This document shows positions 12,102 through 43,259 of a DNA stretch of 64,000 nt, piece by piece. How positions within the stretch are numbered: the stretch's first letter is position 1; each line of letters begins with the position of its first letter. The translations under genes and the position numbers were made by a program. This DNA comes from Neptuniibacter sp. PT8_73 (GTDB lineage: Bacteria > Pseudomonadota > Gammaproteobacteria > Pseudomonadales > Balneatricaceae): assembly GCF_047778045.1 (NCBI RefSeq), contig NZ_CP180545.1:1649480-1713479 (forward strand), given 5' to 3'. The notes beneath the pieces were generated by a model, which worked only from the letters and a program-made list of their open reading frames with translations, was not told where the DNA came from and searched no databases.

Positions 12102-13328
12102 ATGAGAGCCTGACATCAGCTGCATGGTCTCATTACTCCAACTCAAGGCGTCATAATAAGCATCGGCATACACTTCTTGAATATGAGGCGGTAGCTTAAA
12201 GGCAGATTGGCCGATCATGTAAAAGTTAACCGCTTGCAGTAAGCGACCGGCAGGGCCTTCGTAACTAGTGACTGCTTCAACAATCTCATCGGAGACAGAC
12301 AGCTGATCTAGCAGTGATTCTTGATCGATCTCTAGGAGCGCGTCTAGCATTGAGATCACGCCAGTAATAAAAGCGAGTTCGGAATCGATCTCTTCGGTAC
12401 GATAAGCGACGGATTCGCACATTCTTGCTGTAATTAGGATCTGACGGATCAGTTCGCTCGGTTTTTCATCATTGCTAGAGAGGGCAAGCAGGGTGGCCCA
12501 CTTGTTAATCTCGTTCATGCCTAAGGCAATGATCGCCTGACTTAAACTCTCAATCTTATTCGGCAGGTTATATTGCGCAGAATTGACGATACGCAACAGT
12601 TTGAAGGTTAGTTGTGGGTCGCGAGATGAGATATCTGCTAGTACAGCAGGGGTAACATCTTGATCCTGAAGCGCCGCTAATAGGTGAATTACAATGGCCT
12701 GATTGGACGTTAATTTTTTACCTTCGACTAGTGTTGGTCTAGACAGAAATGTACCCTGAAAAAGCCTAAACCCTAAGGCATGGCAGCGCTCATATTCATC
12801 ATGAGTTTCAACGTTCTCGGCGAGAGAAACAACTTTGAAAGGGCGCATGCTTTCCAAGTGAGAAACAATCGCTTCGTCACTATGTTTACGAATGTCGACT
12901 CGAACCATATGTGCGAGTTTAAGCAACTCATCATAGTCGCTATTGTAAGTGAAATCGTCTAAAACTAAGCGGTAGCCAGCATCTACGTATTTTTTCAGTG
13001 AGCCAAGTAATTCAGGCGTGATGTTAGGTTGCTGCTTAACATCCAGAACTAAATTGTGTCGCGATAGACTTGGCAGGCTTTCGGTACGAATAAAGCTTTC
13101 AGTGACATTGAGAAACGCGGGTAAGGATTTTAATGTGCCAGAATCATAGATGCTGGTGAAGTTATTGATTAGGACATTACAGGACTCTTGGTCGCCTTTT
13201 AAAAATTTGGCTACAGCTTCACCATGCTCCGACTGGTACAACAGCTCATAGGCCACGACATTAAGTTCGCGGTCAAAAATTGGTTGTCGGGCAAGTCCTA
13301 GCTGGTTTAAATGTTCTTCCATGTGCAT
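12096..13328 (-). CDS. EAL-domain plus HDOD-domain signalling protein (c-di-GMP related)
   Basis: N-terminal EAL-type domain ('QPIFDRELNVVAYELLYQ', with the EAL motif replaced by ELL) and a C-terminal HDOD domain. The stop overlaps the convergent LysR gene by 6 nt. Confidence 0.7.
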   Translation of the reverse strand: MHMEEHLNQLGLARQPIFDRELNVVAYELLYQSEHGEAVAKFLKGDQESCNVLINNFTSIYDSGTLKSLPAFLNVTESFIRTESLPSLSRHNLVLDVKQQPNITPELLGSLKKYVDAGYRLVLDDFTYNSDYDELLKLAHMVRVDIRKHSDEAIVSHLESMRPFKVVSLAENVETHDEYERCHALGFRLFQGTFLSRPTLVEGKKLTSNQAIVIHLLAALQDQDVTPAVLADISSRDPQLTFKLLRIVNSAQYNLPNKIESLSQAIIALGMNEINKWATLLALSSNDEKPSELIRQILITARMCESVAYRTEEIDSELAFITGVISMLDALLEIDQESLLDQLSVSDEIVEAVTSYEGPAGRLLQAVNFYMIGQSAFKLPPHIQEVYADAYYDALSWSNETMQLMSGSHL

Positions 13329-13591
13329 TTATCCTGTTGTTTATTCATACAACAAATCGTAGATCGTTTAACTCTAACAGCAGAGCCACTATAAAAGCCA
13401 TGGTATTAAGAAACCCTTAACAAATTAATCAGTGGTTTTGTTATCTGGTCGTTTAAGTATAGGTTAGATCGCGATTAACGCTGCTAGGAATGAAGAGAAA
13501 TCTCAGGAGTGCTTTAGAGAGCTTGAAGGTAGAGTTATGGGTCTGAATATGAATTTTATTTCTATAAAAACAGAGAGTTAAATAATTGCAT

Positions 13592-13619
13592 TTGCATCTC
13601 AAAAAATCACTGGTATACT
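13592..13619 (+). promoter_or_regulatory. sigma70-type promoter for ffs (TTGCAT, 16 nt, TGgTATACT extended -10)
   Basis: -35 TTGCAT at 13592-13597, extended -10 TGGTATACT at 13611-13619. Lies about 50 nt upstream of the mature 4.5S 5' end, consistent with a processed leader. Confidence 0.45.
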
Positions 13620-13671
13620 GCGCGCCTGTCTTGAGTGATCTCGCTCAGACAAGGCCCTTCAGGCCCGCTAT

Positions 13672-13784
13672 GGTGGCTCTGCTGGTCCTTCCGCAATGAT
13701 AAATCGTGAACCTGGTCAGGCCCGGAAGGGAGCAGCCACAGCGGTGGATTCATGTGCCGGAATGTGGCTGGTGGAGTCATCACC
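13672..13784 (+). ncRNA. ffs: signal recognition particle 4.5S RNA
   Basis: Near-identical to the E. coli 4.5S RNA domain IV core (ACCUGGUCAGGCCCGGAAGGGAGCAGCC). 5' GGUGGCUCUGCUGG pairs with 3' CUGGUGGAGUCAUCACC. No ORF in the region. Confidence 0.85.
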
Positions 13785-14199
13785 AATTTCCCAATTCTTT
13801 GATTACCTTAGCTACGAATATCAATCAGCTATTTCGTAACTTCTTTTACTTATAAGCGTTATGGTCTGCAGCTAAGTAACAGCCAGTTAATTAGGTTTAC
13901 TTAAAATTTGCGGTGTGAAGCGATCTTAACGCGATCTTACTTAGGCGAGATATATTCTTTAGATGCGTTGCTTTTTAATCGATACAACACAAAACAAAGA
14001 ATGCCGAAGGTAATAAGGAATATATAAGGACAATAGATAATCCCAGCGAGGCCGCTGAAACTTGTCACAACGAGTAATAAAATATCTTTTATTTCTTCCA
14101 TGAGATTAGAACGTCCTTAGTTCTTCCCAAAAAATCCAAACGGTCATTTGAATTCTAGCTTAGTTTTGTCCCTGATCAAAGCAAGGTTATTCTATTGGA

Positions 14200-27826: not shown

Positions 27827-27932
27827 TCTTACTCCAATCAGGTCAGACTGAATTGGTTGCTTTTAACGAAGGTATGTACAAAGCATAGACGCTTTCTGGG
27901 TTTTGCAAGTTTTCAAATCAAGAGGATGTGAA

Positions 27933-28292
27933 ATGAGTTCTGCGCACAATCAAATTAATTATATTGAGTTACCGGCTAATAATTTAGGAAGCACTAAGCG
28001 ATTTTACTCTGATCTTTTTGACTGGAAGTTTACCGACTACGGACCTGAATATTGTGCTTTTGACGGCGCAGGATTAGCGGGTGGTTTTTATAAAGCTGAT
28101 CTGAAATCCAATTCAAGTACTGGTGCTGCACTGGTGGTTTTGTATAGTACAAACCTCGAGGCGAGTCAGGCGCTAATCGAATCAGCTGGTGGTGAGATCA
28201 AAGTACCAATTTTCAGTTTTCCCGGCGGGCGACGTTTTCATTTTCTTGATCCAAATGGCAATGAACTGGCTGTTTGGTCAGATAAAGAATAA
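27933..28292 (+). CDS. glyoxalase/bleomycin-resistance (VOC) family protein
   Basis: VOC fold sequence. ATG 27933 with AGAGGA RBS. The track's 27903 is upstream and in frame. Confidence 0.6.
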   Translation: MSSAHNQINYIELPANNLGSTKRFYSDLFDWKFTDYGPEYCAFDGAGLAGGFYKADLKSNSSTGAALVVLYSTNLEASQALIESAGGEIKVPIFSFPGGRRFHFLDPNGNELAVWSDKE

Positions 28293-28307: not shown

Positions 28308-30056
28308 TTAAAGCTGGTTAGCTTTACGGTAGCGACCTTGGTAATCAAATATTCTCTCTTGTACACGCCAATAGTGCTTTTGCTCGCGTGCGATGACAAA
28401 GTCTGGCGCGACTAAAAGTGCTTCATAAGCGATCGCTTCTTCTATGTTTGAAAAGTTTTGCGGGGCTTGGCTATTCGCAACCCGTCGCCCAAAGATCTCA
28501 TTAAAGCGTTTTAGCTGAGCCGGCTTGGAAAAATCGAAGCTCTCCTTCAGCTCTTCACCTTCCTCACCATGATAAATAACCTGAATCTTGGACTGATTCC
28601 GGATCAACGATAATCCCGCACATCGGATCACCATGGCATCTTTCAGTTTCAGTGCATCTTTTAATTGATCGTCTGGGTCGATAATCGCTTTATTGCACTG
28701 ATGGCATTTGCGGGCAGCGATATCATTTTCAGCATTACAGTGAGGACATTCTTTAAATCGAAAGCGAAAATCACACTGTTCTGATGGGGTATCGCTATCG
28801 TCGCTTTCAAGCAGACCTTTACAGCGTCGACCATGATGTTCAATTACCTTGCCATCGCTGTCAGTTTTGCCCCAAAAGATATTGGCAAAGCCGCAGGAAG
28901 GGCAAAATACTTGTACCGGTTCGGAATCTGGGGAAGGGCGTTTTTCACCCACTTCTGGATGGTGCAAATTATAGTTGTTGCCTGCGTAGTCGATGACTAA
29001 GCAATCTTTCTTTCCAGGCGCGAGTCTAAGACCGCGCCCAACAATCTGCTGATACAGACTAACAGATTCGGTGGGCCTTAAAATTGCTATAAGATCGACA
29101 TGGGGTGCATCAAACCCTGTAGTAAGAACTGATACGTTAACCAGATACTTAATTTTCTTAAGCTTGAAGTCACTGATCAAGCGGTCTCTATCTTCGCTGG
29201 TGGAAGAACCAGTGATCAAAGCTGTTTGGTCCTCGGGAAGGTAAGTGCTGATCTCTTTGGCGTGATCGACTGTTGCTGCAAATATCATCACGCCTTGGCG
29301 ATCTTGAGCTCGTTCGATTACTTGTTCAATGATCGCCCTAGTGACGCGCTTGTATTTTGTGAGCAGGTTATTGATATCTTTTTCAGTATAAGTGCCAAAT
29401 GCAGTTTGATCTAAGGCTGAAAAGTCATATTGCGCGACCGCGGCATCTTCCATTTCTGGGGGCGTTAAGTAGTTACGGCTAATCATGTAACTGAGCGGGA
29501 GTTCGTAGATGCAGTTACGAAATGGTTTTTCCTGCTCGCTTCTAACAAAACCACGATAATGCTGCTGATAGATCCAGCCCATACTCATTCTATAAGGCGT
29601 TGCAGTTAACCCAAGTACTTTGAGGTTGGGATTTATCTCTTGGAGTTTGTCAATGATCCGGCCATATTGGCTATCTTCGTCGTCATTAATACGATGACAT
29701 TCATCGACGATCAGTAAGGAATATTCGTTATTAAAAAGATCAATATTCGCCGCGACAGATTGCACACTGGCGAACGTAACCTGTTTTTCGATCTCTTTGC
29801 GACTCAGGCCCGCTGCAAAGATGCCGCCTTCTAAACCATAGCTTTCATATTTAGCGTGATTTTGCTCAACTAACTCTTTGACATGAGCTAGCACCATAAT
29901 TTTTTTACGTGCTAAGCGAGCAAGCTCTGCTATGACAAGACTTTTTCCGGCACCCGTTGGTAGCACGATGACAGCAGGATCATCAGTTTTGCGAAAGTGC
30001 TGTAATGTCGCATCAACGGCTTCTTGCTGATAGGGACGTAGGGTAAACGCACTCAT
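28308..30056 (-). CDS. radD: SF2 DNA repair helicase RadD (YejH-like)
   Basis: Walker A 'LPTGAGKS', DEAH-like 'VDECH', helicase motifs, C-terminal Cys4 zinc ribbon ('CPSCG...CPHC...CHQC'). Confidence 0.7.
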
Positions 30057-33087: not shown

Positions 33088-33120
33088 AGCCTCCTTATCA
33101 CCTGGGAGGCTTTGTTCTTT
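33088..33120 (+). terminator. hairpin plus T-tract between flotillin and the giant ATPase gene (possible attenuator or partial terminator)
   Basis: agcctcc-ttatcacctg-ggaggct followed by ttgttcttt. Confidence 0.4.
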
Positions 33121-33149
33121 GGACTAGAGGTCACTGTAGGGAAAGTTTG

Positions 33150-36100
33150 ATGGATCAGAATCAGGACGTTTTGAACCAGGCCGTTGAATCGGGCGGTGCT
33201 TATGAAATCTTAAAAGCGCGCTTAGCCAGCCAAGGGGCTGAACTAAAAGGGTTAGTTGATCAATTAAATAAGGCTCGTCAGGAGGCATTTGGTGCGTCCA
33301 GTACTGAGTTGGTTGGCAAGGTTAATGTTCATACCCAAAATAACTGTCTTCCTGTCGATATGGCACAGGTCAACGATCAGTTACTCTTTGGCTATCAAGT
33401 ATTTGTTGGGCTTAAAGCAGCGCCTGAAGTCAAAGATGTTCTAGGCCTATATCGTCTATCAGAAACTGATAATCAGTTTCGGATTGATAGTGAGCCTTTA
33501 GCAGATTCTTTTCTTGATGATCCTCGCTTTGTTCATTCTTTTAACGAACTTTTTCGTTACTACAGTGACGCTAAACTGGTTCAAATTAGCCGCAGGGATT
33601 TCTGGCTATGTGTCGTTTTCCAAATTGGTAGTCGCCCAGAAGATCGTAAGGTTTATCGTTGGCAGCTTAAAGATAGTGGTGCGATCGAATATATAGACGA
33701 TCAAGGCCATAAAGAGCTGGATGGAGTCGGCAATCAGCTTGATGTTGATTGGCGTGAAACCGGGCGTAAGAATCATATAACCGGTGATTACCCTCATGTA
33801 TCGATTAATGATCGTATCTTTGTTGAGTGTGTTGGCGGTGATCTGACTGTAAAGCTTGAGAACAATACTCAAGAAGGGCGAGGGATCTATTCTGAGCCTG
33901 TCGAAGATCCTCATCAAACCGTTGCTGATGCAGAGATAAGTTACGCAGAAGTATCTAGTTTTATTCTGCTACGTATCAGACCAAACCGTGAGAAAGATTA
34001 CCGATATTTTGTTTACGACAGCCTGACTGAAAAGGTGCAACGGGTCGACTCCCTAGGCCAATGCTGTAAGTTACTACCTGAGGATCACGGTCTGTTATTT
34101 GCCAATGGTTACGCTTTGGCGAATGGAGAATTAAAACTCTTCCAAGATGATTGGAGTGGGATGCAATTCTTCCATGATATTCACGCCCCTAATGGTGAAG
34201 ATGCGTTTTACATTTTCTTCGATCCACAACACGGCGCTTACCTACAATATCAATATAACCTGATAGAAAAGACGGTATCTCCACCTGTATATAGTCATGG
34301 TTACAGTTTATATCCTGACGGACGCATGCTGGTTTTCCGTGTCAGTGATAATGCTGAAGCCAGTAAAACCCACCCTATGCGTATTTGGCAGACGCCTTTC
34401 ATGAGTGCCGATCTTTATGAAGCATCGCGACAAGAGGGTGGTGAAGGTTTTTATCGCAATTTAGGGAATGCCGAGTTAGTGAAAGGTATTTCTGAATTGA
34501 ATTCGGTCATTCAAATGACCAAAACGACAGAAATTAGTCAAACGCTTTATGAAGCTTTGGTAACTCACTGTGATGCAGCAGTCGATCAATATCATTGGTT
34601 AACGGATACAGAAACTCAGGGTGTTGACCAAAAACTATCTGAATTAGCGACAACGGCTGAACAGATCATTGATGAGTTCGCTAAAGTCCGAACTCTGCAG
34701 AAACAAGCGAAACAACAAACCGAAGAGCAAGCTCAGAAGCAGCATGATCTGCTAGGTAGAATTAAGTTAGTTCCGTCAGATAGCACAACAGATCTAATTG
34801 AATTGTTAGACGAGACTAAATCGCAGCTTGGCCACGTAATTAGCCTGCGTGAAATGCGTTATGTTAACGCTAGCCAGCTCGATGAAATGGAAGCTGCGTT
34901 AGATGAAGCTCGAAGTGGCTTGAACGCTAAATTACTAGAGCTTTTACAACAAGAGAAAGCTTACCAACCTTATCTAAAGCGCATCGATGCATTGGATTTG
35001 GCGCTTCCAGAAACAGAGAAAACAGCTGCGCTAGACCATTTGGCTGAAGATGCCGGCAAGATCCGTAGAGATCTAAATCTGGTCAATCAAGAAGTTTCAG
35101 ATATTGAAACTGATGATCCTACTAGCACGACAAAAATCCTCGATCTAACAACTGAGGTGATGGCGCGGTTAAACGCTACCGAAGCGCGTTTACGTAATCG
35201 TCGTTCTGAATTAAGAGATGGCGAAGCTAAAGCTGAATTTGCATCACAGCTTAAGCTCCTTACTCAGGCGATGACATCTGCTCTCGGTCAAGTTGATACA
35301 CCGGAAGCCTGTGATGATCAGCTTGCGCGCTTAATGGGGATCGTAGATAAGCTTGAAAGTCGATTTGCTGAATTCGATCAGTACCTAGCTGAGATCTACA
35401 ACAGACGGGACGAAGTTCAAGCAGCCTTTGAAGCGCAGAAGCAGCAGCTTTTATCTGCTCGACAAAAGCGAGTTGAAAATATTAGCCAAGCAGCTCAAAT
35501 CACGCTGAAAAGTATCGAAAAGCGTGTAGGAAAATTCGCTGAGCTTGACGACCTGAATAGCTATTTTGCAGCAGATGCGATGGTGCAGAAGTATCGCCAA
35601 TTGTGTAAAAACGTTCAGGAGCTTGGAGATAGCGTCAAAGCTGATGAATTAAGTGGCCGTATCAAAGCGCTGCAGGACCAATCTCTACGTTCACTCCGAG
35701 ATAATCAAGATATCTTTGAGCAGGGCGGCGATATTTTACGACTTGGCCGACACAAATTTAGCGTCAATCAACAGCCCTTAGAGCTTACCTTAGTCGATCG
35801 AGATGATGGTCTTAATTTACACCTAACGGGGACTGATTTTTACCAATCGGTTGTTGATGATGAGTTTCTGCGTTTACGTAAATACGCCGCGATGGATGTT
35901 AGCTCGGAAAGTAATGAAGTCTACCGAGCGGAGTATCTGGCTTATCTTATTTTAACATCGGCAGAATCAAAGCAATCTGGCTTGTCACTTGATCTCTTAG
36001 TTAAAGCCGCAAGTGAAAATGAACTGCAGCCTTTAGTTGATAAGTTTGCAGCTCCTCGTTATCGAGAGGGCTATGTAAAAGGTGTACATGACAAAGATGC

Positions 36101-38063
36101 AGGGACATTACTCAAGGCTATTATGCCGGTGTACGCCGATGCTGGTTTATTAAGGTTTAGTCAGAAAATACGTACAACGGGTTTGCTGTTTATCGCAGGG
36201 CTAGATAACAGTGCAGCTGATGCACTTAAGAAACAATGCCGTTCAGCTTTGCTAATGCAAAAAGAGTTGGGTTCAGATAGTGCATTTGATGTGCTGTTAG
36301 ACAATTACCAAACTCAAGTTTGTGAATGTCCAATACTAGCGAAACAAGCGCTTGAATATTTGATGTATCAGTTTGGCTTAGATCAGCAGGTCTCTGTTAG
36401 CCGTGATGCAGCCGAACTTGCAGAAAATTACTTAGCATTTAGGCATGGATTAGATTGGCGTAAAAACCAAGAAAGTCTGGCAGAACAATATCAGGATCAC
36501 TTGCTTTGGGTTGAAGCCTACTGTGAACATCATAAACAAGGTATAGAGTTCGTCACAGAGGCCGCTTTAATTGCAGCCTTATCTGACAGTAGCATCCATC
36601 TAACCCCTGTCGATTTCTCTTTGAGTATCAAGGTAAACGGCTTGTTAGGTGAGCACCTTCGTGTTGATGAGGGCAAGTGGAGCGAGACTATCAATGATTG
36701 GTTAGATCGCTGCCGTCACCACATTGAAACGGTCGTACCTGCGTACGAAAAATACCTTTCTCAACGTCAAGAGATGTTAGAAAAGCAAAGAGAGACGATG
36801 CGCATACAAGAGTTTGTCGCTAGGCCGCTAACCTCTTTTGTGCGTAATAAGTTGATCAGTGAATCCTATCTAAAATTGATGGGCGATAACTTTGCTAAGC
36901 AGATGGGTACAACCGGCGATGATCGTCGAACTGACCAGATGGGGATGTTACTGCTTATATCTCCTCCGGGTTACGGTAAAACGACCTTGATCGAATATAT
37001 CGCAGGTAAGTTGGGCTTGGTATTTATGAAGATCAATTGCCCCTCTTTAGGCCATGATGTTGTATCGCTTGATCCAAATGATGCGCCAAACGCGACCGCT
37101 GCTAATGAAGTTAATAAAATTAACCTCGCACTAGAAATGGGTAACAACGTGATGCTGTATCTTGATGATATTCAGCATACCAATCCTGAATTTTTGCAGA
37201 AATTTATCTCCCTAAGTGACGGTACTCGCCGCATTGACGGTGTTTGGAATGGTGTCACTAAAACTTACGACATGCGTGGTCGAAAGTTCTCCATCGTTAT
37301 GGCGGGTAACCCTTATACAGAATCAGGGGATGTGTTCAAAATACCAGACATGCTAGCTAACCGAGCAGATATTTATAACCTCGGTGATATGCTCTCTGAT
37401 CAGCGTGATGCATTCGAGCTTTCATATATTGAAAACTCTTTAACCTCTAACAGAGTGTTGGCTCCGCTGGCAAATAGAAATCTACAAGACCTCTACAAAC
37501 TCGTAGATATGGCACGTGGGCAAAATATCCCGCTTTCTGATTTAGAGCATAGTTACTCTTCAGCAGAAGCCTCCGAAATTGTAGCTGTGCTAGAGAAGAT
37601 GATTAAGGTTCAGCAAGTTGTGCTCGCTGTAAACCAGCAATATATCGCTTCAGCTGCAACCGCTGAACAGTACCGTACAGAACCCCCTTTCAAGCTTCAG
37701 GGTAGTTACCGAAATATGAACAAGCTTGCTGAAAAGGTGGTGTCGGTCATGACCGATGATGAGCTGGAGACGCTTATCAATGATCACTACATTGGTGAGG
37801 CGCAAACCCTAACCCATGGCGCTGAAGAAAACCTGCTTAAATTGGCTGAACTGAGAGGCGCTTTAGATGACGAGTCTGAAGAGCGTTGGGAAACCATTAA
37901 GCAGCGCTTTACTCGATCCTTAGAGGCGGGTGAGGGAGAAGATGCCGGCGATCGAATGGTCAACCAGATGGTTGATGTGAATAGGAACATTCGCCTGATC
38001 GCTTGGGCAATGATGCGTGCAACTAAGGAAATTGAAGCCGCAGAGGAGCTGGAGGAAATATGA
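33150..38063 (+). CDS. giant (1637 aa) coiled-coil protein with C-terminal MoxR/AAA_5-type AAA+ ATPase domain
   Basis: Beta-rich N-terminal 450 aa, about 450 aa of coiled coil, a helical region, then an AAA+ domain: Walker A 'ISPPGYGKTT' (DNA 36969-36986), Walker B 'VMLYLDD', sensor-1 'MAGNP'. ATG 33150 with GGGAAAG RBS. Confidence 0.6.
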   Translation: MDQNQDVLNQAVESGGAYEILKARLASQGAELKGLVDQLNKARQEAFGASSTELVGKVNVHTQNNCLPVDMAQVNDQLLFGYQVFVGLKAAPEVKDVLGLYRLSETDNQFRIDSEPLADSFLDDPRFVHSFNELFRYYSDAKLVQISRRDFWLCVVFQIGSRPEDRKVYRWQLKDSGAIEYIDDQGHKELDGVGNQLDVDWRETGRKNHITGDYPHVSINDRIFVECVGGDLTVKLENNTQEGRGIYSEPVEDPHQTVADAEISYAEVSSFILLRIRPNREKDYRYFVYDSLTEKVQRVDSLGQCCKLLPEDHGLLFANGYALANGELKLFQDDWSGMQFFHDIHAPNGEDAFYIFFDPQHGAYLQYQYNLIEKTVSPPVYSHGYSLYPDGRMLVFRVSDNAEASKTHPMRIWQTPFMSADLYEASRQEGGEGFYRNLGNAELVKGISELNSVIQMTKTTEISQTLYEALVTHCDAAVDQYHWLTDTETQGVDQKLSELATTAEQIIDEFAKVRTLQKQAKQQTEEQAQKQHDLLGRIKLVPSDSTTDLIELLDETKSQLGHVISLREMRYVNASQLDEMEAALDEARSGLNAKLLELLQQEKAYQPYLKRIDALDLALPETEKTAALDHLAEDAGKIRRDLNLVNQEVSDIETDDPTSTTKILDLTTEVMARLNATEARLRNRRSELRDGEAKAEFASQLKLLTQAMTSALGQVDTPEACDDQLARLMGIVDKLESRFAEFDQYLAEIYNRRDEVQAAFEAQKQQLLSARQKRVENISQAAQITLKSIEKRVGKFAELDDLNSYFAADAMVQKYRQLCKNVQELGDSVKADELSGRIKALQDQSLRSLRDNQDIFEQGGDILRLGRHKFSVNQQPLELTLVDRDDGLNLHLTGTDFYQSVVDDEFLRLRKYAAMDVSSESNEVYRAEYLAYLILTSAESKQSGLSLDLLVKAASENELQPLVDKFAAPRYREGYVKGVHDKDAGTLLKAIMPVYADAGLLRFSQKIRTTGLLFIAGLDNSAADALKKQCRSALLMQKELGSDSAFDVLLDNYQTQVCECPILAKQALEYLMYQFGLDQQVSVSRDAAELAENYLAFRHGLDWRKNQESLAEQYQDHLLWVEAYCEHHKQGIEFVTEAALIAALSDSSIHLTPVDFSLSIKVNGLLGEHLRVDEGKWSETINDWLDRCRHHIETVVPAYEKYLSQRQEMLEKQRETMRIQEFVARPLTSFVRNKLISESYLKLMGDNFAKQMGTTGDDRRTDQMGMLLLISPPGYGKTTLIEYIAGKLGLVFMKINCPSLGHDVVSLDPNDAPNATAANEVNKINLALEMGNNVMLYLDDIQHTNPEFLQKFISLSDGTRRIDGVWNGVTKTYDMRGRKFSIVMAGNPYTESGDVFKIPDMLANRADIYNLGDMLSDQRDAFELSYIENSLTSNRVLAPLANRNLQDLYKLVDMARGQNIPLSDLEHSYSSAEASEIVAVLEKMIKVQQVVLAVNQQYIASAATAEQYRTEPPFKLQGSYRNMNKLAEKVVSVMTDDELETLINDHYIGEAQTLTHGAEENLLKLAELRGALDDESEERWETIKQRFTRSLEAGEGEDAGDRMVNQMVDVNRNIRLIAWAMMRATKEIEAAEELEEI

Positions 38064-38776
38064 TTACTCAAATGGATATTGAGAAAATGTTGGTCGAGAG
38101 CTTTGAGGATCAACGTCTCTCCTCAGACGAAAGAGTGGAGCTTCGAGAGTTGATTGAGCAACTCGCAGCTCAACCTGAACTGCAATCTTTCGCGCGTAAT
38201 AAAGCTTTTTCAATTGCCAAGAATTCTGCTGAAAATGGCTTGATTGAGATCGCTTCTCTGAATTGGTTGGACAAGGTTGTTAAGACATTAGACAACACGG
38301 GTAAATCAGCGCCTATCAGAACTCAGTCAGCTTTTTCGCCGGGAGAAGATTGTAGATCTCTGATTCAACAGGAGATAAAACGTAGTCAGAAATCTATAGA
38401 TATCTGCGTTTTTACAATCACCGATCAGCCGCTACGCGACGCTATTCTAGCCGCACATAATCGAGGAATTAAGGTTCGTATCCTCACAGATCAGGATAAA
38501 GCGAACGATTTAGGTAGCGATATCGACTATCTAATGCATAAAGGAGTTGATGTGCTTTTGGATACGAGCCCATGGCACATGCATCATAAATTTGCTCTGT
38601 TTGACGGGGTGAGATTATTGAATGGAAGTTTTAATTGGACACGCTCAGCAAGTGATCGTAATCAAGAGAACCTTACGCTGACGGATAATCAAGAAATCGT
38701 ATCGGCATTTGCCGCTGAATTTGAAGCATTATGGACTCGCCACAGCAGTGTGCGGGTGGAGAGGGAGCCAGCATGA
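38060..38776 (+). CDS. phospholipase D superfamily single-HKD protein (Nuc-like)
   Basis: HKD motif 'HMHHKFALFDG...LNGSFNWT' near the C-terminus. ATG overlaps the TGA of the ATPase gene (ATGA at 38060-38063). GGAGG RBS. Confidence 0.7.
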   Translation: MITQMDIEKMLVESFEDQRLSSDERVELRELIEQLAAQPELQSFARNKAFSIAKNSAENGLIEIASLNWLDKVVKTLDNTGKSAPIRTQSAFSPGEDCRSLIQQEIKRSQKSIDICVFTITDQPLRDAILAAHNRGIKVRILTDQDKANDLGSDIDYLMHKGVDVLLDTSPWHMHHKFALFDGVRLLNGSFNWTRSASDRNQENLTLTDNQEIVSAFAAEFEALWTRHSSVRVEREPA

Positions 38777-39846
38777 CACAGGAAATAAGCACTCAAATCG
38801 AGAAGTTTGAACCGAGTCAAATGACTGAAGAGCAGCAGCAACGTGCGGTTGCCATTTCGCAGGATTATGACCCGTTGGACTCTATGGCGACAATCACCTT
38901 TGGTAAAGAGGCGATGGAAAGCATCACTGCTTTTTCAGATCAGGTGTTGGAGCAAGTCCGTACTAAAGATACTGGGGAAGCGGGGGATATCCTAGAAGCG
39001 ATGGTGACTCAGATGAAGAGCTCGCGCTTTGAAGATATTAAACCTGATTCCTTCCTCTCGCGTTTGCCTCTTATCGGTGAGCTTTTCCAAACATTTGGTA
39101 AGTTTGTAAAAGGATTTGATTCGGTTAAAGGCCGTTTAGATGAATTAGAGCAAAAATTAAATGCCCAAGGTCATCGTCTAGAGAAAGATATTGTCCAGTT
39201 AGATGGTTTGTATGATGAAAACTTAAACTTGCTGCAACAATTAGATATCTACTTAGAAGCGGGTCAAATCACGCTTGATCGCCTGAATAACGAGCAGATT
39301 CCTGAGCTAAGTAAGTTGGCTGAGTCCAGTGGTGATCCAGTAGATAGTCAAAAATTACGAGATCTACAGCAAGCGACAGGTCGCCTAGAAAAACGCCTAC
39401 ATAATTTAAAACAAGCGCGTTTAGCTGCGCTGCAAACTGCACCTCAAATCCGTTTGTCTCAAGAGGGTAACAAAATGTTAATGGAAGATATCCAAGATAT
39501 CATCCATAACACTATCCCTCTATGGAAGCGCCAGTTCCTTATTGCGATCTCTAACTATGAGAAAGAAAAAGCGCTTAAGGTGACACGTACGGTTAAGGAT
39601 TACACTAACCAGCAGTACCTACAAAATGCTCAAAAGCTACAAAGCCTAGAAGAGCAGATAGCGGAAAACTACCAGCGTGGTATTTTGGATCTGGATACCT
39701 TAAAAGAGGTGAACCAAATCACTATCGATACGCTAAACAATACGCTTAAGCACTACGAAGAAGGTCGTCGTATGCGTCAAGAAGCTGAGAAGGCTATTAC
39801 TCAAGCTGAGGAAGAGCTAAAACAAGCTCTGATGCAGACAGTATAA
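38773..39846 (+). CDS. TelA/KlaA-like toxic-anion-resistance family protein
   Basis: 357 aa helical protein whose N-terminal region resembles TelA ('DPLDSMATITFGKEAMESI...'). ATG 38773 overlaps the PLD TGA (ATGA). RBS GAGGGAG. Confidence 0.55.
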   Translation: MTQEISTQIEKFEPSQMTEEQQQRAVAISQDYDPLDSMATITFGKEAMESITAFSDQVLEQVRTKDTGEAGDILEAMVTQMKSSRFEDIKPDSFLSRLPLIGELFQTFGKFVKGFDSVKGRLDELEQKLNAQGHRLEKDIVQLDGLYDENLNLLQQLDIYLEAGQITLDRLNNEQIPELSKLAESSGDPVDSQKLRDLQQATGRLEKRLHNLKQARLAALQTAPQIRLSQEGNKMLMEDIQDIIHNTIPLWKRQFLIAISNYEKEKALKVTRTVKDYTNQQYLQNAQKLQSLEEQIAENYQRGILDLDTLKEVNQITIDTLNNTLKHYEEGRRMRQEAEKAITQAEEELKQALMQTV

Positions 39847-39916
39847 AAAGATTAAACATCTTGTTATTTGATAAAGGTTAATGTCGTTCATTAGCCTTTT
39901 TTATTTTTAAGCGTAT

Positions 39917-39946
39917 AAAAAAACCGGCCTAAGTAGGCCGGTTTAA
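39917..39946. terminator. bidirectional rho-independent terminator
   Basis: aaaccggcct-aagt-aggccggttt flanked by A/T runs, between the convergent TelA-like and acidic-protein genes. Confidence 0.7.
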
Positions 39947-41273: not shown

Positions 41274-43259
41274 CTATTTCCCATCTAGGATGATCGATTC
41301 AGCAATTTCAATCTTATCGTTAGGTCCTTGAAGGATGATGATATCGCCCTGTTGGATATGAGTGTCACCACTTGGACTGTGTTCAGATTGATCTCCGCGG
41401 CGGATCATTGCAACAGAGACTTGGTGCTTTGATAAAGGTATATCCCGTAAAGTTTTGCCTATCGACTTGCAGTTATTTTCAATTTGAACGGGATGAAGTA
41501 TCTCTTTCATTCGGCCTTTACTATCAATTTTTTCGGAATGCTGGCCGTGATAGTAGCCATGTAGGAGGTTGTACCTTTCTGCGCGCACTTGATTGATTTG
41601 TTGTTCAATCTGTTGATGGTTGATACCCAGCATTGATAACACATGGGACACCATCATTAAGCTGCCTTCCAATGCTTCTGGGATAATTTCGGTTGCTCCA
41701 GCATTTTGAAATGCTTCGATCTGAGAATCATCACGTGTTCTGACTAAAATGGGCAGTGTTAAAAAGCGGGTGCGGATATGCTTGAGTGCTTGCATTGCTG
41801 TCTCCGCTTCCGGAAAGCTGAGGATCAACATGCGGGCACGATCAGCGCCAACAGCGGCCATCACATCATCACGTTTGGCATCGCCAAAACATATGTGTTC
41901 ACCTGCTGTTGCGGCTTCCATAACCCTTACCGGGTCATTATCTACGACAATGTAAGGGATGTTTGCTTGGTCTAAGAAGCGCGCGATGATCTGACCCACA
42001 CGGCCAAAGCCACAGATAATCACATGTTTATCTAAACTATGCGGATTTAGTTGGCTGGCATCAGGCAATTTCTGTTGTGGCGATTCAATTGGATCATCTT
42101 TGTGCAACCAACGACTCAGACTATAAGTGTGGTTCATCAAAATTGGTGTGACGATCATGCTGATAATGATCGTGGAAACAACAATAGTGTTGATATCAGG
42201 CTCGATCAGATTATTACCTAAGGCTAAGGCCAATAAGGCAAACCCAAATTCACCACCTTGGCTAAGACTGAGGCCAGCTCTTAAGGCATTTACCGGGTCT
42301 TTATGCAGTAGCGTACCGAGCAGGGTAATAATAAAAGTTTTTAATAGGATTAAGCTGACACTGAACAGGATAATCCAATACCAGCTATCGATCAGCGCAG
42401 ACAGATCTAATTGCATTCCTACAGAGACAAAGAATAGTCCCAATAGTACATCTCTGAATGGGCGTATATCGGCTTCTAATTGATATCTGTAACGGCTCTC
42501 ACCCAACATCATGCCTGCTAAGAATCCACCGAGAGCCATCGATAAACCTGCAGCGTGAGTAATCCAAGCGGCCAAAAGGGCAGCCGCCAGTGTAGTAAGA
42601 ACAAACACATCGCTGGAGCCGCTACGTGCGGATTCATGGAACAGCAATGGCATCACAATATGGCCAACCAGCAATAGGATAATGAGTAGTGTTGAGCCCT
42701 CAAGTAGCATCAAGGCTACTTCGGCACTGTCTATCTCTGTTGCAGAACTACTCAGTGTCGGGACAACAATCAGGAAGAATACAGCCGCTAAATCTTGGAA
42801 AATTAATGTGCCGACTGAAAGCTGGCCATGAGGACTATTGAGTTCGTCACGCTGAATCAGCTCGCGGCTTACAATCGCTGTAGAGGATAAGGCAAGCGCA
42901 CCGGCGATAACTAAAGAGGTGGTTTGCGGAAGGCCAAAAAGATGGCAGATTGCCATCAAACAGGCAGCGGTGATAATGACCTGCAAACTACCCAGACCAA
43001 ATACAGCCTTGCGCATGGCAAACATACGCGAGACCGAGAACTCTAAGCCGAGCATAAAGAGTAAAAATACAACCCCTAGTTCACTGAGTAGCTCAATGCT
43101 ATGGGTGTCTTTGATGACCCCTAAACTATAAGGGCCTACGATAGCGCCAACACTTAAGTAGGCTAGGAGAGGTGGGAGCTTGATGCGCCGAAACAGGGTT
43201 GTGGCAACAACGGCACAACATAAAATGACCAAAAATTGCTCGAAAAAACCCTGTGACAT
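41274..43259 (-). CDS. CPA2-family K+/H+ antiporter with TrkA-N/TrkA-C (KefB/YbaL-like)
   Basis: 661 aa. Na_H exchanger membrane domain, Rossmann 'VIICGFGRVGQ', C-terminal TrkA-C. Confidence 0.8.
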   Translation of the reverse strand: MSQGFFEQFLVILCCAVVATTLFRRIKLPPLLAYLSVGAIVGPYSLGVIKDTHSIELLSELGVVFLLFMLGLEFSVSRMFAMRKAVFGLGSLQVIITAACLMAICHLFGLPQTTSLVIAGALALSSTAIVSRELIQRDELNSPHGQLSVGTLIFQDLAAVFFLIVVPTLSSSATEIDSAEVALMLLEGSTLLIILLLVGHIVMPLLFHESARSGSSDVFVLTTLAAALLAAWITHAAGLSMALGGFLAGMMLGESRYRYQLEADIRPFRDVLLGLFFVSVGMQLDLSALIDSWYWIILFSVSLILLKTFIITLLGTLLHKDPVNALRAGLSLSQGGEFGFALLALALGNNLIEPDINTIVVSTIIISMIVTPILMNHTYSLSRWLHKDDPIESPQQKLPDASQLNPHSLDKHVIICGFGRVGQIIARFLDQANIPYIVVDNDPVRVMEAATAGEHICFGDAKRDDVMAAVGADRARMLILSFPEAETAMQALKHIRTRFLTLPILVRTRDDSQIEAFQNAGATEIIPEALEGSLMMVSHVLSMLGINHQQIEQQINQVRAERYNLLHGYYHGQHSEKIDSKGRMKEILHPVQIENNCKSIGKTLRDIPLSKHQVSVAMIRRGDQSEHSPSGDTHIQQGDIIILQGPNDKIEIAESIILDGK

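Follow-up and report, generated by a model that had tools for sequence, protein, structure and literature searches.

What does a bacterium do with a 1637-residue ATPase encoded directly behind a flotillin gene? The question is raised by a 64,000-nucleotide stretch of Neptuniibacter sp. PT8_73 (contig NZ_CP180545.1, positions 1,649,480 to 1,713,479; hereafter the window, whose own numbering is used throughout), in which a giant gene for an AAA+ protein follows genes for a YqiJ-like membrane protein and a YqiK-type flotillin. The ATPase gene is real and conserved far beyond chance, and it takes the third, obligate place in a yqiJ-like/yqiK-type flotillin operon. Current annotation makes its product a 'DNA repair ATPase'; more probably, it works with membrane-scaffold and stress proteins as their ATP-driven partner.

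The ATPase gene and its flotillin operon

Two starts are available in the ATPase frame, an ATG at 33150 and an alternative TTG at 33147. The ATG has the motif AGGGAAAG 6 nt to its 5' side and gives a length equal to that of the closest database protein, a 98%-identical Neptuniibacter sp. protein of 1637 aa (P0001) that is named 'DNA repair ATPase'. GC content over the gene (0.44–0.45) is like that of its surroundings. A hydropathy scan predicts no transmembrane (TM) segment, and the protein is therefore taken to be cytoplasmic.

Its N-terminal portion, residues 31–482, matches PF12458 (DUF3686) over the entire profile (positions 1–448 of 448) with 545.3 bits against a gathering score of 25 (E 1e-163). 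Pfam names this family 'ATPase involved in DNA repair', and NCBI 'DNA repair ATPase'. PF25472 (DUF7902) matches residues 603–687 with 60.2 bits (cut-off 26, E 2.2e-16), and weak Pfam matches to AAA, AAA_5 and AAA_22 lie within residues 1263–1394 (AAA and AAA_5 at 1267–1394). With both DUFs, a single C-terminal AAA+ module and a length within ~1600–1900 aa, the protein belongs to the DUF3686–AAA+ family. Full-length homologues of this architecture number at least 756, and the 120 listed share its Pfam set and are of similar length. The DUF3686 domain is found almost only at the N-terminus of 1600–2000-aa proteins (637 representatives among 1.84 billion proteins). A homologue is present in at least 596 of 185,579 species genomes, one genome having been scanned per species, and on 13 of 72,556 plasmid records, mostly megaplasmids or secondary chromosomes; none occurs among 50,697 phage records. 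Despite this sporadic, cross-phylum spread, actinomycetotal and gammaproteobacterial members retain ~42% identity. The window protein adds one member to a family already catalogued and briefly discussed, but functionally unexplored.

Gene order was compared across 80 related loci from Gamma-, Beta- and Zetaproteobacteria, Myxococcota, Actinomycetota, Planctomycetota and one Clostridia metagenome-assembled genome. All 71 loci whose upstream sequence extends for 3.2 kb or more have the YqiJ-like and flotillin genes directly before the ATPase gene. Escherichia coli K-12 carries homologues of these two genes in the same order, but no ATPase, PLD or TelA gene follows its yqiK, which argues that the ATPase depends on the flotillin and not the reverse. 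In the window, ATGA overlaps join the ATPase stop to the start of a PLD gene (38060–38063) and the PLD stop to the start of a TelA gene (38773–38776), so that translation of the three genes is coupled.

Neither of the two upstream proteins has a Pfam match, and their identities come from comparisons of profiles that were built from the related loci. The YqiJ-like family profile aligns with E. coli YqiJ (hhalign 93.8%, E 1.7e-7), and the flotillin family profile aligns over residues 19–500 with E. coli YqiK (hhalign 99.9%, E 4.4e-34); judged by this comparison of profiles, the SPFH identity of the 710-aa protein is settled. Direct identification of an SPFH domain was too weak to serve (NCBIfam FloT at E 0.0045; QmcA at 0.002 in a PDB profile search, in the coiled coil only). 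The hydropathy scan places one TM segment at flotillin residues 6–31, followed by an alpha/beta region. Flotillins linked to the ATPase are ~150 residues longer than E. coli YqiK, and residues ~570–700, outside the YqiK-aligned part, contain a conserved block, HEEFRL.LE...IDIVGGDG.FFD.F.KA.S.GKAVDG, which is a candidate docking site for the ATPase. A terminator-like hairpin occupies the gap between the flotillin and ATPase genes (Table 1), and it may act as an attenuator that lowers expression of the giant ATPase relative to the flotillin; terminator-like sites in the region are not above chance in a consensus scan (9 against 8.6 expected), and the hairpin is a lead only.

Other partners recur less regularly. 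A DUF2170 gene paired with a PspA (PF04012)/IM30 gene lies upstream in 29 of 70 loci, a single-HKD PLD gene lies downstream in 15 of 66, and TelA and rhomboid genes accompany 10 and 8 of the same 66, respectively. We infer that all of these are lineage-specific accessory or effector genes. A preliminary description of the locus, made from the nucleotide sequence, suggested that the ATPase may bridge flotillin assemblies and PLD and TelA partners. The link to flotillin is borne out by the 71 loci, but PLD and TelA are only occasional neighbours and the PspA–DUF2170 pair is commoner than either, so bridging to PLD and TelA is not the core function.

A comparative genomics study (Ravi et al., mSystems 2024; PMC11237479) devotes one paragraph and one supplementary table row to an operon of CesT/Tir – PspA, YqiJ/YuaF, Band-7+coiled-coil+flotillin and 'beta-propeller + coiled-coil + AAA-ATPase'. 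It reports a PLD gene in some Proteobacteria and abbreviated operons without PspA, and proposes a chaperone-like role in membrane complex assembly. The window locus has the same domain order, the same upstream YqiJ-like and flotillin genes and the optional PLD gene, but it is without the PspA/CesT-like (DUF2170) pair and has a TelA gene translationally coupled to the PLD gene; TelA has no occurrence in that paper. No AAA+ clade is assigned there, whereas the present analysis places the module by MoxR, dynein and midasin. A paper on Pseudomonas aeruginosa SPFH proteins does not cover the flotillin–ATPase operon. The operon is not a new kind of system; it is a well-defined entry point to flotillin function.

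Domain architecture and the AAA+ module

AlphaFold2 models, built from alignments of window fragments with full-length homologue proteins, cover residues 1–490 and 1150–1637. In the N-terminal model (pLDDT 90.9, pTM 0.88), helices 3–47 and 420–485 flank ~30 strands between residues 53 and 414, and the modelled beta domain is divergent and propeller-like. DUF3686 is the only Pfam family in this domain, with no enzymatic family alongside it. A PDB search with the N-domain profile was empty, and there is no close relative among solved structures. These results agree with the preliminary description on a beta-rich N-terminal domain that lacks a recognisable enzymatic motif. The same description had given the domain no family, which the DUF3686 match corrects, and had counted a match to a well-characterised family that explains the function as a refutation; DUF3686 is uncharacterised, and this refutation does not arise.

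The central region is charged and helical, as first described, but a coiled coil of ~450 residues is not what the sequence suggests. Assessed by a home-made heptad and periodicity score, residues 483–860 (41% charged, 4.8% Pro/Gly) contain heptad-like segments above the 99th percentile of shuffles at 486–523, 622–656, 719–762 and 806–835, and the family-averaged hydrophobicity has a periodicity of 3.5–3.6 residues with peaks at 456–560 and 701–805. Conserved Pro/Gly columns interrupt the region at 540, 561, 607, 689, 718 and 859/860. Together, the breaks and the heptad segments indicate a segmented helical stalk of ~375 residues, and residues 860–930, previously counted as coil, belong to a separate conserved domain. 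This domain opens the middle region with a conserved beta-rich stretch, after which comes a poorly conserved helical part. The middle region carries the invariant motif Y..GY.KG[IV]HD.DA, and residues 859–1190 have no Pfam match in 41 members and no match in a PDB sequence search. In 40 loci from different phyla the stretch equivalent to residues 483–1195, stalk plus middle, keeps a length of 699–772 aa, a constancy that suggests a structural ruler.

The AAA+ core is the best-conserved portion of the protein. Its motifs SPPGYGKTT, LDDIQH, MAGNPYTE.G, IPDMLANRAD and QGSYRNMN are invariant in 121 homologues down to 44% identity, and the invariant motifs recur in alignments drawn from 25 to 79 sequences. 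Such conservation indicates strong purifying selection. The Walker B motif ends in DD in 121 of 121 sequences, and DD is therefore a fixed family trait and not decay. Sensor 1 is an Asn; R1405 is the candidate Arg finger, and R1521 is assigned as candidate sensor 2 from its motif position. Because both arginines are invariant, the ATPase is not degenerate. The preliminary description had read the Walker A, Walker B and Asn sensor-1 motifs correctly; the arginine finger and sensor 2 for which it had proposed a search have invariant candidates at the sequence level, and the degeneracy it had considered is not seen.

The model of residues 1150–1637 (pLDDT 85.4) has the strand order expected of an AAA+ module. 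It also contains the two structural marks of the MoxR/dynein/midasin group, a pre-sensor-1 beta hairpin, which here follows Walker B, and a pre-sensor-2 insertion, here an extra long helix (1471–1503) ahead of the invariant YRTEPPFKLQGSYRNMNK motif that carries R1521. Within the lid and C-terminal helices, heptad segments lie at 1482–1511 and 1601–1636, and the tail is acidic and heptad-like. In a Foldseek search of the PDB, CbbQ (a MoxR ATPase) and NorQ rank top, at E-values close to those of MCM and RuvB. As modelled, the module is structurally closest to CbbQ and NorQ, then to dynein and midasin. LDDIQH corresponds to the DEINR-type motif that MoxR, dynein and McrB have in common, with E replaced conservatively by D, N by Q and R by H, and NPYTESG..F.IPDMLANR corresponds to the NP...G...LP....DR motif of these proteins.

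AAA_5 (PF07728) matches the window protein with 24.8–25.3 bits (cut-off 22) over profile positions 2–127 of 139, and matches above its cut-off in 41 of 41 members, from Walker A through sensor 1 (best E 8.4e-9), whereas in these members PF00004 extends no further than Walker B, which does not fit the classical AAA clade. Each protein has a single P-loop and a single AAA match rather than several concatenated modules. Sequence searches of the PDB gave less: a single-sequence search returned only P-loop matches and a spurious decarboxylase match, and a profile of residues 860–1637 returned only P-loop-region matches to p97, NVL and RuvB, with no MoxR protein at E up to 1.

The MoxR/dynein-like AAA_5 assignment of the preliminary description thus stands for the fold and the AAA_5 match, but not for the other hallmarks of MoxR. 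The MoxR-specific models AAA_3 (PF07726) and CbbQ_C match none of the 41 members at E up to 0.01. No vWA family was found, as had been stated at the outset, in nine genes scanned around the locus or among the gene families common to the 80 related loci, although the rest of the genome could hold one. The protein is MoxR-like by fold, and membership in the MoxR family fails on four counts: sequence model, Walker B, vWA partner and size. Compared with CbbQ and NorQ (PDB 6l1q and 9qh4), it shares the DEINR-like Walker B region, the NP...G...P....R motif after sensor 1 and the pre-sensor-1 hairpin, but sequence identity is only 12–17%, Walker B is DD and not DE, and the module comes with a 1250-residue N-terminal extension, an enlarged lid and a flotillin partner instead of an enzyme. 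Dynein and midasin (Rea1) are likewise matched by AAA_5, and they too are very large proteins in which an AAA+ motor is accompanied by a long helical element and by a binding domain distant from it; unlike them, the ATPase has one AAA+ module per chain rather than six concatenated ones and no MIDAS domain, and its helical region is N-terminal to the AAA+ module rather than inserted within it.

Table 1. Window coordinates of the operon, the parts of the ATPase and neighbouring features (Arg, arginine; aa, amino acids).
Feature	ATPase residues	Window position	Strand	Remarks
YqiJ-like (DUF1449-type) membrane protein, 205 aa		30305..30922	+	First gene of the triad; three predicted TM segments and a small C-terminal soluble domain
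YqiK-type flotillin (SPFH), 706–710 aa		30929..33061	+	N-terminal TM anchor, SPFH-like domain, long Glu/Ala-rich coiled coil, family-specific C-terminal region; likely true start ATG 30941, after GGAGAA motif
Hairpin		33088..33111	+	8-bp stem with 5 G-C pairs, then TTGTTCTTTG; in the 88-nt flotillin–ATPase gap
ATPase open reading frame	1–1637	33150..38063	+	ATG start; stop included
N-terminal long helix	3–47	33156..33290	+	Heptad-like; lies with the helices after the beta domain in the model
Propeller-like all-beta domain (modelled)	53–414	33306..34391	+	Core of DUF3686
Central helical stalk, charged and heptad-like	483–858	34596..35723	+	From composition, heptad scan and periodicity; contains DUF7902
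DUF7902 (PF25472)	603–687	34956..35210	+	
Middle region	859–1190	35724..36719	+	From conservation profile and invariant columns
AAA+ alpha/beta core	1256–1412	36915..37385	+	Walker A, Walker B, hairpin, sensor 1, candidate Arg finger
Walker A	1271–1279	36960..36986	+	SPPGYGKTT; GYGKTT is 1274–1279
Walker B	1334–1343	37149..37178	+	VMLYLDD 1334–1340; LDDIQH 1338–1343
Pre-sensor-1 beta hairpin	1361–1374	37230..37271	+	AlphaFold2 model
Sensor 1	N1387	37308..37310	+	In MAGNPYTE.G; MAGNP is 1384–1388
Candidate Arg finger	R1405	37362..37364	+	In LANRAD
Candidate sensor 2	R1521	37710..37712	+	In QGSYR
Enlarged helical lid and C-terminal helices	1413–1637	37386..38060	+	From AlphaFold2 secondary structure, invariant columns and heptad segments
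Single-HKD PLD-superfamily protein, 238 aa		38060..38776	+	PLDc_2 E 1.4e-31
N-terminal region of PLD protein (its residues 1–95)		38060..38340	+	~90-aa helical region; no Pfam match
TelA-family protein		38773..39846	+	PF05816 E 2.2e-78
Terminator-like hairpin after TelA		39873..39899	+	Consensus scan only
Terminator-like hairpin facing it, before the convergent DUF5610 gene		39944..39921	-	Consensus scan only
Glyoxalase/bleomycin-resistance-family gene		27903..28292	+	Upstream of the operon
radD (yejH) helicase gene		28308..30056	-	Full length; divergent from the operon
DUF5610 protein gene, 394 aa		39973..41157	-	Downstream and convergent
KefB/KefC-like CPA2 K+ efflux protein gene		41274..43259	-	TrkA-N and TrkA-C domains

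Possible roles at the membrane

SPFH proteins pair with AAA+ machines elsewhere, HflK/C with FtsH and prohibitin with the m-AAA protease, and polymers of the ESCRT-III/PspA type are remodelled by AAA+ ATPases, as ESCRT-III is by Vps4. On balance, and leaning slightly in its favour, the ATPase is read here as an ATP-driven remodeller of flotillin/PspA-type membrane assemblies. It would oligomerise through its AAA+ module, dock on the cytoplasmic face of the flotillin–YqiJ assembly by its propeller domain, its stalk or both, and, during membrane stress, use ATP to assemble, disassemble, open or recycle structures organised by flotillin or of the PspA/TelA membrane-stress type, or to pull client proteins out of them. 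The fused propeller would take the adaptor role that a vWA protein holds in ordinary MoxR systems. Oligomerisation, the flotillin contact, the substrate and the direction of remodelling are the parts of this scheme that we infer, and the mechanochemical or scaffolding role suggested in the preliminary description has the same standing. The likeness to the known pairs, an SPFH- or PspA-kind membrane scaffold genetically coupled to an AAA+ ATPase, would be a functional parallel only; the ATPase has neither a protease nor an MIT domain, and FtsH, m-AAA and Vps4 are AAA proteins of the classical clade. A bolder version, possible but tentative, is that the ATPase is a dedicated ATP-driven motor for one class of bacterial flotillins, with a MoxR/dynein-like AAA+ ring on a length-constrained stalk and a propeller, in place of the usual vWA adaptor, that grips the flotillin cage or PspA/TelA polymers so that they are actively assembled, opened or recycled during membrane damage.

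Several points weigh against remodelling. The proposed physical interaction between flotillin and ATPase is read from gene order. The DD Walker B could make hydrolysis slow, giving a role that is switch-like rather than motor-like. None of the PspA, TelA, PLD and rhomboid genes is present in 22 of the 61 loci with both flanks, so the flotillin itself may be the substrate, or else something that other parts of the genome encode. The two structural models lie on either side of the middle ~700 residues of the ATPase. The literature yielded no experiments on the family, neither under DUF3686 nor under 'DNA repair ATPase' with flotillin. Finally, the sporadic distribution, in the species genomes counted above, fits an accessory module, yet conflict systems typically show the same pattern.

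A conflict (anti-phage or abortive-infection) module, in which flotillin and the YqiJ-like protein sense membrane perturbation during infection and the giant AAA+ protein is a nucleotide-dependent switch that licenses effectors such as the HKD protein (as a nuclease or phospholipase) or rhomboid, would accommodate some of these features. Cross-phylum spread at ~42% identity suggests horizontal transfer, the family is present on some megaplasmids, the weak best matches of the PLD protein are the defence-associated DrmC, Mokosh MkoB/MkoC, DpdK and NucT, and switch-like STAND NTPases commonly have DD in their Walker B. It is nevertheless unlikely. The ATPase, flotillin, YqiJ-like and TelA proteins match no known defence system in PADLOC-DB v2.0, in a search that covered libraries up to 2023. 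The proposed effectors are present in a minority of loci, the phage records hold no homologue, the window neighbours are of housekeeping type (RadD, glyoxalase, a KefC-like transporter) in DNA of unremarkable GC content, and the commonest partner is PspA, a membrane-repair protein. A literature search for anti-phage functions of SPFH proteins found nothing relevant. The invariant DD is also what a structural scaffold or slow nucleotide-gated tether would display, one that binds ATP, hydrolyses it poorly and uses its stalk to space partners from a flotillin platform; the length constancy of stalk and middle and the large non-catalytic mass ahead of a single AAA+ module are in keeping with it. 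Invariance of sensor 1 and of both candidate arginines in the most conserved part of the protein is, however, the pattern expected of ATP turnover, and since E to D comes with N to Q and R to H in LDDIQH, the active site appears co-adapted rather than decayed. A scaffold of this kind is accordingly given little weight.

The names in Pfam and NCBI would make the protein a DNA repair ATPase, possibly SMC/Rad50-like, that acts with the divergently encoded RadD helicase. A UniRef entry bears the name Smc, the next gene upstream, on the opposite strand, is radD, and the HKD protein could be a nuclease. This is very hard to reconcile with the remaining evidence: radD adjoins none of the 80 related loci, and its position in the window therefore lends no support to the name. 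No DNA-binding, nuclease or SMC/ABC domain was found, and PDB searches gave no SMC, ABC or Rad50 match. Walker A and Walker B sit together within residues 1271–1343 of one C-terminal AAA+ module, not split by a coiled coil as in SMC and Rad50, the conserved neighbours are all membrane or membrane-stress proteins, and no publication that supports the name was found in the literature. Hardly better founded is an ordinary MoxR-type chaperone that matures a metal-containing enzyme with a vWA/MIDAS partner encoded elsewhere, after the manner of CbbQ/CbbO and NorQ/NorD. CbbQ and NorQ are the closest solved structures, but the vWA gene and the AAA_3 and CbbQ_C signatures are missing as described above, the ATPase is ~5 times the size of MoxR and has its own N-terminal propeller, and its synteny is with flotillin and not with an enzyme.

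A conserved ATPase that is never without the flotillin/YqiJ pair in the loci sampled gives a concrete handle on bacterial flotillin function and active remodelling, both of which are unsettled. Candidate catalytic residues (K1277, D1339/D1340, N1387, R1405 and R1521), candidate partners (the flotillin, the YqiJ-like protein, PspA, TelA and the PLD protein) and cultured hosts of the operon (Vibrio campbellii, Pseudomonas fluorescens SBW25 with pQBR103, and Stenotrophomonas maltophilia) are at hand. Nothing in the evidence gathered supports the widespread label 'DNA repair ATPase', which probably leads annotation astray. In terms of AAA+ biology, the ATPase would be a MoxR-type module in which a fused propeller has replaced the vWA adaptor and Walker B has become DD. 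If the ATPase is a flotillin motor, it would be the first known component of a bacterial flotillin microdomain that consumes energy, and it would reproduce Vps4/ESCRT-III logic in bacteria with an unrelated AAA+ clade.

Accessory and neighbouring genes

The PLD protein has an intact HxK(x)4D...GSxN signature (HHKFALFD...GSFN), and its similarities to the NucT, DrmC, DpdK and Mokosh MkoB/MkoC models are weak. Its N-terminal helical region, which the PLD proteins of related loci also have in conserved form (L029, 15145–15840, is one example), includes FEDQRLSSDERVELRELIEQL, a stretch that recalls TerB-type motifs. For the TelA gene, the mechanically called start at 38731 is probably wrong; the likely start is the ATG at 38773 (Met15), which follows GGAGAGGGA, and this M15 is invariant in the TelA alignment. 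The two facing terminator-like hairpins beyond TelA close the operon. TelA was also considered as a relative of PspA/ESCRT-III, and the candidate was dropped at an hhalign probability of 0.2%. A DUF2170 query has no match among the window ORFs (open reading frames), and the gene before the YqiJ-like one is radD, on the opposite strand; the upstream DUF2170–PspA pair is not present at this locus.

The eight rhomboid loci are mostly of Pseudomonas type (L016, at 13229–13795, and L005, L007, L014, L018, L020, L028 and L030). Here a 188-aa intramembrane protease of the rhomboid family is encoded between the ATPase and PLD genes, either immediately after the ATPase gene or overlapping its end, an arrangement that points to membrane proteolysis as a further output of the module. 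The 425-kb plasmid pQBR103 of P. fluorescens SBW25 (L082, NC_009444.1, 85407–104329) carries nine same-strand genes that end in the ATPase: PspA, rhomboid, DUF2491, DUF350, DUF1190, a glutathionylspermidine-synthase-like gene, a 654-bp hypothetical gene, SPFH and the ATPase. The hypothetical gene occupies the position of the YqiJ-like gene, and the run brings a yjf-type PspA cluster and the flotillin module together.

Upstream of the operon in the window, the RadD product, a DNA repair helicase, scores 950 bits against an NCBIfam cut-off of 720. Four Stenotrophomonas loci (L019, L023, L038 and L047) have a close homologue of the glyoxalase/bleomycin-resistance-family gene (E ~1e-34) some 1.5–2 kb ahead of their YqiJ-like gene, a recurrence that may be coincidence or a loose association. 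The DUF5610 gene and the gene for the KefB/KefC-like protein, which scores below the equivalog cut-offs, appear unrelated to the operon.

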